From assembly GCF_041886205.1 (NCBI RefSeq), contig NZ_CP169030.1: DNA of 64,000 nucleotides; one strand, written 5' to 3'. The stretch comes from Escherichia coli (lineage in GTDB: Bacteria > Pseudomonadota > Gammaproteobacteria > Enterobacterales > Enterobacteriaceae). The notes under the pieces are model-generated. The model was not told the origin of the DNA. It did not search any database and saw nothing but the letters and a program-made list of their open reading frames with translations. The position numbers were made by a program, and so were the translations under genes. This document shows, piece after piece, positions 50,992 through 58,780 of the stretch (its first letter is position 1; the number at the start of each line of letters is the position of its first letter).

Positions 50992-51555
50992 TCAGGCACG
51001 CAGACGAATAATCATCGTCGAAGCATCGGTATAAGCAAACGTGCCGCGCGGCAGCTCCTCGCGGACGTCAGAAAACGGTAACAGCTTCTCCTGCTGGCGT
51101 GGCCCGTTGAGACAGACGGCGACCAGCACGCCACCCGGACGCAACAGGGAAAAAGCCCGCAGGATATGCCGGATATCCTGCCCGTGGCTGAACGGCGGAT
51201 TCATGATTATCCGGCTGTAATACTGCACCGGCTGCCATTCCATGAAGTCGCCACACTGTACCCTGACACCGTTAAAATTTTCCCGCAGATACCGGACCAG
51301 CCCGCTGTTAATCTCCACAGCATCACACATGGCCCCCGGCGCGGTATCCCGAATCGCCCGCAGTATGGCTCCGGTGCCGGCAGAGGGCTCCAGAATGTGA
51401 TCATGGTTGCTGATCTCCGCCAGCGTCACCAGGCGATCACAGACCGGGGCAGGTGTCACAAAGAGCTGAGATTCAGCCCGGATTTCAGCAACTGGCGCAG
51501 CGTTATCCAGCCTTGCGCGCATCAGCCGGATACGTTCTCTTAACTGACTGTGCAT
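50992..51555 (-). CDS. Orphan DNA amino-methyltransferase (motif I EPSAGTGA, motif IV NPPF)
   Basis: 187 aa with SAM-binding and (N/D)PP(F/Y) catalytic motifs; no adjacent restriction gene. Confidence 0.7.
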   Translation of the reverse strand: MHSQLRERIRLMRARLDNAAPVAEIRAESQLFVTPAPVCDRLVTLAEISNHDHILEPSAGTGAILRAIRDTAPGAMCDAVEINSGLVRYLRENFNGVRVQCGDFMEWQPVQYYSRIIMNPPFSHGQDIRHILRAFSLLRPGGVLVAVCLNGPRQQEKLLPFSDVREELPRGTFAYTDASTMIIRLRA

Positions 51556-51601
51556 GTCATTATCTCCGTCATACCCCGGGGCTTTTCCCCGGGGATAAGC
51601 C

Positions 51602-52963
51602 TTATTTCTGCGGGATTTCCGTGATTTTCATGTCGGTGATATACACATTCACCAGGCGGAAATTATTGTCCATTGTGCGGCGGTAACGATATGCCCCGTG
51701 GTCTTCTGCCTCTGCCACACTGCGCACGGCCTTACAGTCCCGGGGCAGGGCGGCCCACTGTGCCTTTGTCATTTCCCGGAAACCTTCTCCCGGATAGTTG
51801 ACTACCGGCGGACGCTTCGCGGCCTGTCTGGCGACGGCGGCCTCTTCTGCCGATGGTGCTTTGTAGTCCGTGATGCGATCGGGCGTCACTTTCATCGTGC
51901 CGCTGTACCCGAGAAAACTGTAATTTGGCGTTGTGACTGAACTCACTGCCCCGTTGCTTTTGTTCACGCGGATGATGGTCAGCCACTCGCCCCGGCTGAA
52001 AACCTGTCCTCCCGGCTCAAAATCCTGTGTCCGGGTAACCACGCCGACGCTTTCTTCCAGCATGGCACGCTCATAGATCAGGCGGTTCTGATAGTGGTTA
52101 ACCCAGCGTTGCTGATGCTGAATCTGCCGTTCATGGCAGCGGATCGCAATTTCGCGGGCCTGCTCCGTGGTGATGATGTCATCATCCAGGGCCGACCATA
52201 ACGATCGACTTCCTTCATACTGGCTTTTTTCTGCCGGGCGCGGATACGTATCCAGCGGGAAACAGGCACTGATACGGTCACAACTGCTGATGAGTTTTGC
52301 CATATTCAGATCCAGCGATTCAGCCCGCCACATCGTCAGATATTTCTGCGACTGCGCGATGGTCTTTTCAGACTTGCGCAAATCAGCTTCGATTTTTTTG
52401 ATACGACGCCAGCGAACGTCCGGACGTTCTTTATACTTCGCGTGAAGCAGTGCCGACCGCGCCCGCTCCTCCCAGTATTCCGCACGTTCAAAGAGCATCA
52501 CGGCACGTTTCATACCATTTTCAATACGCTGCGCATCACGACGGGCGCGGCGTTCGCTGTGATGCCCCACAAGGATCGGCTGACCGGGCGGGATCATCGC
52601 GGCCAGTCTTTCCACTTCCTCAAGTGCCTGTGCGGATTCACTGGCCCGCTTTCCGCTGTATCCGGTAAACCGCTCCGCCCGTGCTTCCTGACGTTCAGCG
52701 AGCGTGCTGTCTTCATCCTCAATCTCTCCGGCAAGTGAGAGGAGCACGTCTTCCCGGCCCGGTGTCCAGGCTGGCGCGACAAACAGCGTCTGTTTTGGTG
52801 CCCAGCGGAAACCGGCATCATGTACTTTCTTATACGTCTCCGGGTCAAGACGTGACGCGGCATACAGGCGCAGTTTGTTGTCATCCGGTGAGTAGGTCGC
52901 GCGGTACATCTGCACAGGGCTGGCAGCTTCCGGGGCGGTCATGGTGATTGCTGCTAATGTCAT
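51602..52963 (-). CDS. Hypothetical 453-aa leading-region protein
   Basis: Long ORF with coiled-coil middle region; family not recognised. Confidence 0.6.
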   Translation of the reverse strand: MTLAAITMTAPEAASPVQMYRATYSPDDNKLRLYAASRLDPETYKKVHDAGFRWAPKQTLFVAPAWTPGREDVLLSLAGEIEDEDSTLAERQEARAERFTGYSGKRASESAQALEEVERLAAMIPPGQPILVGHHSERRARRDAQRIENGMKRAVMLFERAEYWEERARSALLHAKYKERPDVRWRRIKKIEADLRKSEKTIAQSQKYLTMWRAESLDLNMAKLISSCDRISACFPLDTYPRPAEKSQYEGSRSLWSALDDDIITTEQAREIAIRCHERQIQHQQRWVNHYQNRLIYERAMLEESVGVVTRTQDFEPGGQVFSRGEWLTIIRVNKSNGAVSSVTTPNYSFLGYSGTMKVTPDRITDYKAPSAEEAAVARQAAKRPPVVNYPGEGFREMTKAQWAALPRDCKAVRSVAEAEDHGAYRYRRTMDNNFRLVNVYITDMKITEIPQK

Positions 52964-53014
52964 AAAATGTTCTCCTTCCGTCTGTTGCCGCCCCTCGCGG
53001 GGCGGCTCACCTCA

Positions 53015-53245
53015 TCAGTTAAAAGCGCGTTTCAGTTCGAGTGTGCGGAGCACCTGCCCGAAGGCCGTGTTTTTCATGGCGGGGATGTGTACACCACGCC
53101 CCCGGTGAAAACTCCTGGCAATGTGTCGTCCGAAGGCTTTCAGCACGGGGTCAATTTCCGGCGCGGGGATGTCTTCGCGTCTGAAACGGGGATGACGGCG
53201 GGGCTTTACAGCCGCTGCGGAAGGTGAAACAATACTTACTGTCAT
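53015..53245 (-). CDS. Hypothetical basic small protein, first ORF after repeat D
   Basis: 76-aa ORF. Confidence 0.35.
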   Translation of the reverse strand: MTVSIVSPSAAAVKPRRHPRFRREDIPAPEIDPVLKAFGRHIARSFHRGRGVHIPAMKNTAFGQVLRTLELKRAFN

Positions 53246-53479
53246 AATTTAGCCTCTTATGACGTTAATTAATGAAACCGTAAAGACTGTTCGTGCAGTC
53301 TCTGCGGTGTGGATTAAGCAGGTCCCTGACCTGCTTTTTTCATATCTGCATCTGACGCTTTCCGGTGTTTTCCTCCTTCTGTTCCTGCGTTCTCATTACC
53401 TGCCAGCCGGATGACTGACAGAACAAATAAATGCGTATTGCCGGAGCCTGAAATAAATCCTGATTTTTAAAGAACATCA

Positions 53480-56968: not shown

Positions 56969-56981
56969 TCTCTTCTCCTTC

Positions 56982-57203
56982 TCAATCTTTGAAGCAGGAA
57001 TCCAGTTCCAGAATTTCGGTATATGCCTCCATCAGGAGGCGGTTTGCACGAAACAGCGTCTGACGCACCAGACGTTCCGACAGGGTGTCGGCATTAAAGC
57101 TGTACCGCTGCTCCATCTCATTCATGGTTGTACGCAGGTCGCACATGGCATTGGCCACCTCCGCCACCTCGGCGCGCAGTTTTTCGTGTCCGGCATAGTT
57201 CAT
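56982..57203 (-). CDS. Hypothetical small protein
   Basis: 73-aa ORF tightly packed between neighbours. Confidence 0.4.
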   Translation of the reverse strand: MNYAGHEKLRAEVAEVANAMCDLRTTMNEMEQRYSFNADTLSERLVRQTLFRANRLLMEAYTEILELDSCFKD

Positions 57204-57886
57204 TTACGCAGCCTCCGGTTCAAACCAGTTATCATTCGCGGCCCCCTGCTGCATGGCACGTTGCACGGCGGCCAGTCGTTGCTGTCCGGCACGGTGATAC
57301 TGTTCAAGCAGCTCGATACCGATATACCGGCGTCCGGACTGAAGGGCGGCCACGCAGGTTGAGCCGCTGCCTGCAAACGGGTCCAGAACAATCGCGTTCG
57401 GGTGTGTGAAGGTCTCAATCAGCGGTTGCAGGCTGGTAACGGGCTTTTCCGTCGGGTGATGGCGGTTGCCTGAATATTTCCAGCCCAGCACGTCGGGCAA
57501 TGGCTTCTGAGGCAGCGCCGGACGTCCTTTTGCCAGGATGTAAGCACATTCGTGACGGTAAGCGACATACGCAGATTTGGATGTGTAGTTTTTGGTGAAG
57601 ACCAGGTGGCCAACCACGCTGAATCCGGCGCGTTTCCAGGCTGCCATAAAGCGGTCAATGCGGTTCCAGCCATAGAAGCTGACCATTAACGCGTTTTTTT
57701 CAGCACGCAGTACATCTCATTACAGGCAGGTTGCAGCCAGTCATCGTTAACGTCACCGGCAATGGTGCGCCCGGAACGGTCACGGAAGCCCACCAGGTAA
57801 GGCGGGTCGGTTAATATGAAATCAATGGCGTTATCAGGGATACGCGCCATAACATCGATGCAGTTACCGAGGACAAAACGGGACAT
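57204..57886 (-). pseudogene. Orphan beta-class DNA N6-adenine/N4-cytosine methyltransferase, split by frameshift in an A7/T7 tract (57694-57700)
   Basis: N-terminal ORF carries motif IV TDPPY, C-terminal ORF carries motif I DPFAGSGST; the two ORFs overlap by 1 nt and one extra A would fuse them. Confidence 0.75.
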
Positions 57887-58300
57887 ACAAAACTCCTTCT
57901 CTTACAGAGGGCACCGGGAGGGCCCCCCCTGTGGTGCCCGTTCCCCGCTGCCTGTGGGCTGTTCACCGCGTCCGGTAACGGGTCAGGCCGACCGTGGAAT
58001 ACCGCAGCCGTCGTCTTTTTGACGGCAAGGTTATGCCGCGAAAGCGGCTTGAAGGGCGTTCATCAGAAAAGGGCGACGGGCTGGCGTACACTGTCACCGA
58101 CGCCAGCCGGGAGCGCTAAAAGCGCCCGTCCCGTGCCCGGCCGGACGCGGGACACTGACCACAGGCAGCGTTCCTGCCGCGCCGCGTCAGCCGGCGCAGT
58201 AAAAAGAGGAGCCCGGCGACTTCCTTTGTCGGAAAAGAAACGGGCGGTTGCCCGCCCGTCTCCGTCATACTTCATCCGCCATAATGCGCCACCTTGTCGA

Positions 58301-58780
58301 CTATCCACTTCGGCGCGGTGACTTCCGGCAGTACGTTGTCACACAGACGGTTCCACCACGTCGATACTTTCTCGTTACTCCAGATGTCGCACCAGTCACC
58401 TCTTTTTGGGGTGAAAAGAGCAGTAATGCTTCCCTGACCTCATCCGGTAATCCTTCCCAGCGACGCTGTCCAGTACCGCTCTGTAACCAGAGTTCATGCA
58501 GCATCAGGCAGTTTTGCTCATCCAGAAGTACACCGTTCTGCAGGTGTGTCAGCCAGTGGGTGAACGCGATATTCTCAGGCGATACAACGCCACGTCCGGC
58601 AGCCATCAGTCCGTGGCATGGTTGAAACCGCACATCTTCAGTGGTCTGCAGAAGTCCGGCACTTCCGGCCACAAACAACTGAATACCTTCATTTGTGGTG
58701 CGGCGATAAAACGGTGTGACGGCACCGCTGGCCAGTCGTTTAATCGCAGCAATCTGTGCCGGCTCGGCAGAAAAATACAT
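58301..58780 (-). CDS. Hypothetical protein; C-terminus likely disrupted by frameshift near 58400-58420
   Basis: ORF tail (VTGATSGVTRKYRRGG…) is low-complexity while an alternative frame gives a protein-like tail (…TPKRGDWCDIWSNEKVSTWWNRLCDNVLPEV…). Confidence 0.45.
   Translation of the reverse strand: MYFSAEPAQIAAIKRLASGAVTPFYRRTTNEGIQLFVAGSAGLLQTTEDVRFQPCHGLMAAGRGVVSPENIAFTHWLTHLQNGVLLDEQNCLMLHELWLQSGTGQRRWEGLPDEVREALLLFSPQKEVTGATSGVTRKYRRGGTVCVTTYCRKSPRRSG

Follow-up and report, generated by a model that had tools for sequence, protein, structure and literature searches.

What do the uncharacterized genes in the leading region of a conjugative plasmid do beside the anti-restriction genes with which they enter a new host? 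The question is raised by positions 50992-58780 of a 64,000-nt stretch of Escherichia coli DNA (contig NZ_CP169030.1 of assembly GCF_041886205.1; the whole stretch is referred to here as the window), where klcA and two orphan DNA methyltransferase genes are interspersed with tightly packed open reading frames (ORFs). A first-pass annotation, made from the sequence alone, had proposed these ORFs as candidate anti-defence genes and the small acidic paralogs beside klcA as plausible DNA mimics. Whether an antibiotic-resistance plasmid outlives its first minutes in a new host depends on its leading-region genes. The families in this region rank with the most abundant known on plasmids; Escherichia, Klebsiella, and Salmonella carry thousands of copies, yet most of the families have no assigned biochemistry. 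From the data presented below, the region is probably composed of three anti-restriction units, each led by a single-stranded DNA (ssDNA) promoter, in which the uncharacterized ORFs are conserved companions of the effectors rather than free-standing DNA mimics.

Three units headed by homologs of ssDNA promoters

The window belongs to an F-like conjugative plasmid (IncFIA/MOBF). It contains repE, sopA/sopB, and the 43-bp sopC array, and traM and a minus-strand tra operon are present which, together with sopAB and repE, give the arrangement of F. The motif GTGGGGTGTGGTGCT, which we take to be the nic-site sequence of F, was matched exactly and only once in the whole window, on the + strand at 40156-40170. 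From this placement the + strand was deduced to be the transferred strand (T-strand) and hence the template for the minus-strand genes. The leading region runs upward from about 40.2 kb, so that the genes at 50992-58780 lie 10.8 to 18.6 kb from nic, and the + strand would enter the recipient 5' end first from nic at about 40165. The region is the standard half of an F-like leading region distal to the transfer origin (oriT); at least 5,000 PLSDB plasmids, mainly conjugative and from Escherichia, Klebsiella, or Salmonella, match it at 90-96% identity. The description of the region as a leading-region stretch holding anti-restriction genes and uncharacterized companions, oriented so that the entering strand can serve as their template, was therefore borne out.

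Four repeats of about 570 nt, A to D, were located at 42297-42871, 44805-45379, 50193-50767, and 53448-54021, with 85-96% identity to the Frpo1 and Frpo2 promoters of F; repeats C and D, which the first-pass annotation had used as landmarks, are thus real and are two of four copies. Both are + strand homologs of class 1, Frpo-type ssDNA promoters. Repeat C (93.5% identity to F Frpo2) heads an ssb-DUF905-parB-like-psiB unit and forms the proximal border of the region studied. Repeat D lies on the transferred strand with 93.9% identity to Frpo2 and 85% to Frpo1, and the T-strand fold across it (53400-54206) gave a z-score of -12.2 versus shuffled sequences. Two further elements, both on the + strand, occupy gaps of 414 nt. 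The gap upstream of klcA (55290-55703; main stem at about 55325-55560) was assigned as a homolog of the class 2 hairpin ssp2, with a mean column identity of 94% when aligned to the F region upstream of its klcA homolog and a z-score of -5.3 for the T-strand ssDNA fold. The gap upstream of the second methylase gene (57887-58300; main stem at about 57946-58169) was assigned as a class 3 homolog, with a mean column identity of 91% in a four-sequence alignment that included the region upstream of the F methylase, near-identical window and F rows in the hairpin core, and a z-score of -6.1. The assignments are supported for the Frpo type by homology, a stable T-strand stem-loop, and minus-strand genes downstream, and for classes 2 and 3 by homology to elements of F and pESBL together with a T-strand stem-loop. 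A terminator-like hairpin at 55677-55696 (minus strand) follows yubG at the end of the upstream unit. A sigma-70 consensus scan of both strands over the 5.6 kb from 53300 to 58900 found no site, versus 2.0 expected from shuffles, and this fits a dependence of the units on single-strand hairpin promoters.

In F, Frpo1 and Frpo2 drive early expression in transconjugants (Couturier 2023, PMC9849209), and transcripts of two operons upstream of Frpo2, encoding KlcA and M.EcoGIX homologs, are raised in transconjugants (Wen 2025, PMC12672017). The same study defined the class 2 (klcA, ardA) and class 3 (M.EcoGIX) ssDNA promoters and found them conserved in F. The F element ssp2, just upstream of the klcA homolog, acts both as a promoter and as a roadblock to complementary-strand synthesis (Fraikin 2026 preprint). 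Its deletion lowered transfer into nonisogenic hosts from 21-fold to below detection, and lowered transfer 36-fold against EcoGIII and 5-fold against EcoKI, while having no effect between isogenic K-12 strains (Fraikin 2026 preprint). Since the units of the window are headed by homologs of these F promoters, their genes most likely have a brief period of expression in the recipient, ahead of complementary-strand synthesis. Judged by homology and predicted folds, the window most likely carries three such zygotically induced units. Unit 3, behind the class 3 hairpin, would comprise a methylase of the M.EcoGIX type that is dead in this lineage, YubE, the DUF1380 paralog b (DUF1380b), and YubG; unit 2, behind the class 2 hairpin, would comprise KlcA/ArdB, the DUF1380 paralog a (DUF1380a), and YubK; and unit 1', behind the Frpo-type repeat D, would comprise orf76, a DUF3560 protein, and a catalytic module of 187 aa.

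Every ORF named in the first-pass annotation was recovered on the minus strand, at the coordinates given with each gene below. The nine intact ORFs, including those of 63, 73, and 76 aa, gave ratios of nonsynonymous to synonymous substitution rates (dN/dS) of about 0.04 to 0.5 in pairwise comparisons with orthologs in F and three other plasmids. They were therefore deduced to be real coding genes under purifying selection and not chance frames. Inside the units, stop and start codons overlap or abut at 54398, 56534, and 57203/57204. While no family had been recognized for the unnamed ORFs, most of them fall into named ones, namely, DUF3560, DUF1380 (twice), YubE, and DUF1281. An NCBIfam scan of ten ORFs returned nothing but weak methyltransferase matches for 50992-51555, and PDB sequence searches with DUF1380b, the DUF3560 protein, and YubG returned no matches.

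The DUF3560 protein and the gamma-class methylase

The last gene of unit 1' (50992-51555, minus strand, 187 aa, dN/dS 0.19-0.24) encodes a YdcA-like module of the gamma type of N6-adenine DNA methyltransferases. The S-adenosylmethionine (SAM)-binding motif LEPSAGTG precedes the catalytic motif MNPPF, which is the gamma-class order. The closest solved relative is M.TaqI (E 1.3e-6, residues 33-135), and the assignment is further supported by PHROG "DNA methyltransferase" families (E 1e-25 to 1e-31) and by Pfam MTS (1.5e-6). The polypeptide ends shortly past the catalytic domain, and no target-recognition domain was found within its 187 aa. Relatives of this module carry a DUF3560 module of 400-450 aa fused at the N terminus.

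The neighboring YdbA-like gene (51602-52963, minus strand, 453 aa, dN/dS 0.12-0.18) encodes just such a module, matching Pfam DUF3560 with an E value of 4.6e-37. Its AlphaFold2 (AF2) model (predicted local distance difference test [pLDDT] score, 86) begins with an alpha/beta domain, continues in a long helical bundle, and ends in beta domains at the C terminus, and no solved structural homolog of it was found. A tblastn search with the DUF3560 protein gave at least 5,000 near-identical records in PLSDB and four weak matches in a phage collection. Its relatives were followed in two IMG/VR scans, which gave partly overlapping sets at 33-63% protein identity and a locus GC content of 0.38-0.69. 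Seven of the eight loci in the first set have DUF3560 and methylase in one frame of 600-855 aa, and in the eighth the two are adjacent with stop and start overlapping. The second set gave the same picture, with 69 of 80 loci fused in frame and 5 with adjacent, separate genes; of the remainder, 3 end too early downstream and the other 3 lack a methylase within 3 kb. The break between YdbA and YdcA falls exactly at the variable linker, between the conserved motif at the C terminus of the DUF3560 part and QLFPTP, with which the methylase domain opens. It was concluded from these comparisons that YdbA and YdcA appear to be the split form of a two-module orphan methylase that is widespread among mobile elements. 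On this pattern of fusion and adjacency, the 453-aa ORF is presumably the partner of the methylase and its noncatalytic N-terminal module; instead of the independent unknown for which it had been taken, it would be the detached N-terminal module of the adjoining methylase.

The fused DUF3560-methylase gene was observed widely in contigs classed as viral (loci L008-L095), with a ParB-like gene just downstream in L008. Among close relatives of the window, the module is present in L003 and L005 and absent from L004 and L006, and since it is bracketed by Frpo-type repeats, its gain or loss is inferred to proceed by recombination between them.

The first gene after repeat D, orf76 (53015-53245, minus strand, dN/dS 0.04-0.11), encodes 76 aa with a pI of 11.9. 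It gave a weak Pfam match to an HU-like domain (E 7e-4, residues 25-62) and was found neither in F nor in the IMG/VR relatives of the methylase module.

The frameshifted methylase and its proposed companions

Unit 3 begins with a gene for a beta-class N6_N4 DNA methyltransferase (57204-57886, minus strand, 683 nt) that is split into ORFs of 66 and 160 aa. Alignment to the intact ycdA of AP026744 showed a 1-nt deletion beside an A-run. The beta-class motif order is retained across the break, the 66-aa ORF carrying LTDPPYLVGF and the 160-aa ORF carrying DPFAGSGST; Pfam N6_N4_Mtase matches the 160-aa part, and the intact ortholog matches CcrM (E 1e-16) and DpnA. Public data contain the same 66-aa and 160-aa products on 28 contigs, which identifies the split as an allele of the lineage and not a read error. 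To judge from the reading frame, the methylase is presumably inactive in the window. Thus, both of the orphan methylase genes that had been reported for this region are present, but one of them is frameshifted. The intact relative M.EcoGIX methylates single strands and shields the entering plasmid pESBL from restriction (Fomenkov 2020, PMC7736820).

The start of yubE (56982-57203, minus strand, 73 aa, PF27407) abuts the methylase stop; its product matches PHROG 4830 (E 5e-34), and its dN/dS is 0.09-0.14. The YubF-like DUF1380b gene (56534-56968, minus strand, 144 aa) follows, with PF07128 on record and a match to PHROG 9024 (E 2.5e-69). For the next ORF (55704-56534, 276 aa) the likeliest start was placed at 56483, supported by the Shine-Dalgarno-like GGGAGAA upstream and by homologs of the resulting length; the gene at 55704-56483 (minus strand) thus encodes a YubG/YchA-like acidic protein of 259 aa. 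Its dN/dS of 0.17-0.29 was obtained against divergent orthologs in F, L001, and L002. The product matches PHROG 8919, a family of unknown function, with an E value of 7e-139 and has no match in Pfam or NCBIfam; among the matches listed, all homologs have at least 80% identity.

In public databases, DUF1380b was also observed fused to YubG through in-frame deletions, the junction lying at a shared AR.LL motif (P0365, P0121 of 375 aa, and P0345 of 417 aa are among the fusion records), one version being present on 15 contigs. Fusions of YubG to the ssDNA-binding protein SSB occur on 82 contigs and imply the loss of the whole klcA unit and one Frpo repeat in some plasmids. Both kinds were rejected as Rosetta-stone evidence and were deemed to be in-frame deletion products typical of a recombinogenic region.

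The klcA unit

The anti-restriction gene klcA/ardB, whose presence had been reported, was readily confirmed at 54864-55289 (minus strand, 141 aa in a single domain, dN/dS 0-0.14). Pfam Antirestrict (PF03230) is on record for the identical gene, and the product matches the KlcA structure 2KMG (E 8e-18), the ArdB structure 2WJ9 (E 2e-8), and a PHROG anti-restriction family (E 1.6e-20), the structure matches covering residues 11-141. Directly downstream and adjoining klcA is the YubJ-like DUF1380a gene (54398-54817, minus strand, 139 aa), which matches Pfam DUF1380 over residues 1-103 (E 4.3e-4) and has the highest dN/dS of the region, 0.20-0.51. The unit ends with a YubK-like gene (54207-54398, minus strand, dN/dS 0.08-0.37), which encodes a basic protein of 63 aa. 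Its junction with the gene before it is a stop/start overlap, and an ortholog occupies the same position in F; no family for it was found in Pfam, NCBIfam, or PHROG.

DUF1380 proteins and conserved gene order

The two small acidic proteins are true paralogs, as had been suggested, with 28% identity over 116 aa (E 9e-8). Their family is narrow, with 143 representatives, many of them fragments, in 1.84 billion clusters at 50% identity. The contigs that carry six distant DUF1380 homologs (28-34% identity) were inspected, and in all six contexts the genes run N6_N4 methylase-YubE-DUF1380, their junctions being coupled. A gene of 260-266 aa having no Pfam family follows DUF1380, at the YubG position, in L098, L099, and L103; L102 has none there, and its next unit is Antirestrict-DUF1380, an order that this distant locus shares with F. 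By this synteny, methylase-YubE-DUF1380b, with or without YubG, and KlcA-DUF1380a are apparently conserved cassettes.

Two labels that could be attached to the DUF1380 proteins were compared to these data. The model of DUF1380b is all-helical and lacks a methyltransferase fold; judged by this model, the name "adenine-specific methyltransferase" that databases give to DUF1380 proteins is without structural basis. Profile-profile comparison of DUF1380 and DUF3560 gave no relationship (probability, 0.5%). The second label, DNA mimic, was drawn from the acidity of both paralogs, and that acidity is real: pI 4.5 and net charge -15 for DUF1380a (139 aa), and pI 4.8 and net charge -9 for DUF1380b (144 aa). 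These are net values for the whole protein, and they compare with -9 for KlcA, which is not a mimic. No fold match to DNA mimics of the ArdA or Ocr type was found. With an all-helical model, a modest net charge, and no fold match, the suggestion of DNA mimicry found no support.

In the distant relatives L098 and L099, a 66-aa gene at 7736-7936 carries a Ral (restriction alleviation, PF11058) domain. It lies between the DUF905 and parB-like genes and represents a further anti-restriction function in the leading-region backbone of a distant relative.

The DUF1281 remnant and neighboring features

The ORF at 58301-58780 (minus strand, 159 aa), which had been listed among the candidate genes, was shown to be a pseudogene. 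It is a remnant of a DUF1281 (YubB/YccB) gene, only residues 1-122 matching a family of 308 aa. Counted from the ancestral start, codon 4 has gone from TGG to TGA (W4-to-stop), and an internal deletion of about 385 bp and a frameshift are also present. The truncated product occurs on 20 contigs. In AP026744 (locus L001, AP026744.1) the class 3 hairpin is present twice, at 12888-13270 and 14198-14600, with 96% identity between the matches of the two copies; one lies upstream of the methylase and the other upstream of an intact DUF1281 gene. From the second copy, the intact DUF1281 gene seems to own a copy of the ssDNA promoter. The hairpin copy that precedes the DUF1281 gene in AP026744 is missing from the window, where it has been lost.

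Directly past the remnant lies the sopC centromere (59063-59878), with thirteen tandem copies of its 43-bp unit, and these repeats mark the border between the leading and maintenance regions. Closer to nic, psiA (46131-46849, minus strand, 719 nt) is split into ORFs of 47 and 177 aa by the loss of 1 nt (GG to G) in comparison with the psiA of AP026744. The 177-aa product is found on 94 contigs in public data; this SOS-inhibition gene therefore appears to be inactivated in the lineage. Between the Frpo-type repeats A and B, two small overlapping ORFs (43067-43716, minus strand, 112 aa and 104 aa) resemble a HigB/HigA-type toxin-antitoxin pair, the 104-aa ORF looking like a helix-turn-helix (HTH) antitoxin; F is without such a pair at this position.

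Function of the uncharacterized genes

The output of the three units would be protection of the entering plasmid from restriction. Type I systems would be countered by KlcA/ArdB, and pre-emptive methylation of the plasmid DNA would come from the orphan methylases. In the proposed pairings, YubE and DUF1380b would go with the beta-class methylase, DUF1380a with KlcA, and the DUF3560 protein with the gamma-class methylase. We infer from their linkage that the companions may act physically or functionally with the neighboring effector.

Several points weigh against this proposal. All functional statements for the plasmid of the window are carried over from F and pESBL, and the companion role is suggested through guilt by association, that is, by fusion and synteny. 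ArdB (Fraikin 2026 preprint) and M.EcoGIX (Fomenkov 2020, PMC7736820) are reportedly active when expressed alone from constructs, and their neighbors therefore cannot be obligatory subunits. In the window, yubE and DUF1380b are intact beside a frameshifted methylase, which points either to recent decay or to a role independent of the methylase. Some of the IMG/VR loci are redundant, and the loci may belong to plasmids or integrative elements instead of phages. In-frame deletion fusions such as DUF1380b-YubG and YubG-SSB are common in the region, so that single fusions are weak evidence, and the DUF3560-methylase assignment rests on the frequency of the fusion across divergent elements. As for the promoters, the sigma-70 scan placed no hexamers in the class 2 and 3 hairpins, and the complementary strand also forms a hairpin.

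In the main rival explanation, the DUF1380 paralogs inhibit host defence on their own, as perhaps do YubE, YubG, and YubK; as DNA mimics of the ArdA/Ocr kind or as Acr-like proteins, each would bind a defence system directly and block it, independently of KlcA or the methylase beside it. Their early-induced, T-strand-oriented position would suit such a role, as would the acidity of the DUF1380 paralogs (pI 4.5-4.8), the rapid evolution of DUF1380a, the fastest in the region with a dN/dS of up to 0.5, and the survival of yubE and DUF1380b beside a dead methylase. The loss of ssp2 costs F 36-fold against EcoGIII, a type II system (Fraikin 2026 preprint). The activity of KlcA/ArdB is documented for type I systems in the accounts drawn on here, and therefore another gene of the ssp2 operon may underlie the EcoGIII effect. 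Set against the all-helical model and the lack of a mimic fold, we consider this explanation unlikely, although it is the strongest of the alternatives. It is quite improbable that the ORFs instead serve establishment, whether by handling the entering strand, by setting when the complementary strand is made, by regulating the leading operons, or by reprogramming the host. Such roles are held by other leading-region proteins, in the accounts drawn on here by SSB, PsiB, and the ParB-like host-reprogramming factor YfjB, and ssp2 itself is a roadblock for complementary-strand synthesis. The extreme basicity of orf76 and its weak HU-like match would also fit, and the long coiled helices and beta-barrel-like domains of the DUF3560 model may suit nucleic acid or protein scaffolding. 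However, the deletion of ssp2 was harmless between isogenic K-12 strains and harmed transfer only into nonisogenic or restricting hosts, which argues for defence evasion by at least the klcA unit, and the DUF3560-methylase fusion and the methylase-YubE-DUF1380 synteny tie these genes to DNA modification.

That the small ORFs are chance frames or decaying remnants lacking function is hardly credible. Decay does occur here, as seen in the methylase at 57204-57886, in the DUF1281 remnant, and in nearby psiA, and deletion fusions are frequent in databases. Against this stand the dN/dS values of all nine intact ORFs versus several orthologs, the retention of length and order in F and in relatives at about 30% protein identity, the Shine-Dalgarno-like sequences, and the coupled start/stop junctions.

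For the preferred reading, in which the ORFs are companions of the effectors, the hypotheses are narrowed to three pairings: a split enzyme made up of the DUF3560 protein and the small adenine methylase, YubE/DUF1380b with the single-strand methylase, and DUF1380a with KlcA/ArdB. Two apparent candidates are removed as pseudogenes. As a speculative extension, doubtful in itself, DUF1380 proteins (with YubE) might be adaptors that couple the effectors to the entering strand or to host factors, DUF1380b and YubE serving the methylase and DUF1380a serving KlcA/ArdB; alternatively, DUF1380a or YubK might be the factor behind protection from EcoGIII.

Comparison with known systems

Plasmid F (NC_002483, about 53.8-58.6 kb) has the same genes in the same order and orientation from the methylase to yubK, with orthologs at 88-95% nucleotide identity. 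Its order is DUF1281 remnant, DNA methylase, YubE, YubF, YubG, YubI/antirestriction, YubJ, YubK, and Frpo2. From yubK, F passes through Frpo2 straight to ssb and is without orf76, DUF3560, and the class I methylase, whereas the window has this extra Frpo-headed module and four Frpo-type repeats versus two in F. The module apart, gene order agrees with that of F from sopB to ssb. The beta-class methylase and psiA are frameshifted in the window in comparison with F. The promoter elements of the window are homologous to the ssDNA promoters of IncF and IncI1 plasmids (PMC9849209; PMC12672017; Fraikin 2026 preprint), lie at the same positions, and are predicted to form T-strand stem-loops. By PF03230 and by sequence match to solved structures, the KlcA/ArdB protein is like KlcA of RK2 and ArdB of R64 and pKM101, and no difference from them was detected; the F homolog YfgB is 93% identical to R64 ArdB (Fraikin 2026 preprint). 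The beta-class methylase gene belongs to the same family as the single-strand-specific m6A methyltransferases M.EcoGIX and M.BceJIII (PMC7736820), namely, N6_N4_Mtase with DPPY before the SAM-binding motif, and has the same leading-region position and orientation, but the copy in the window is frameshifted.

The same families appear among the largest T-strand leading-region families in Supplementary Table 1 of Samuel 2024 (Nature 635:186, PMC11541004), where DUF1380 is numbered 7 and 14, the K07319 methylase 8, KlcA-HS 9, YchA/YubG 10, the YfcA type 11, DUF1281 27, and DUF3560 28, and where a YubE-like family is also listed. In the parts of Samuel 2024 (PMC11541004) drawn on here, these families are read as probably anti-defence, and the first-pass annotation restates this for a textbook plasmid backbone. 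The DUF1380 families are labeled there "adenine-specific methyltransferase," whereas the DUF1380b model obtained here has no methyltransferase fold, and those parts describe neither the split of the DUF3560-methylase nor the methylase-YubE-DUF1380 cassette. Published work already covers the region and its gene families, the fact that these are enriched in leading regions and expressed early in F, and the importance of ssp2. What is added here is the lack of a DNA-mimic signal, the recognition of two decayed genes, the split-methylase reading of DUF3560, and the methylase-YubE-DUF1380 cassette.

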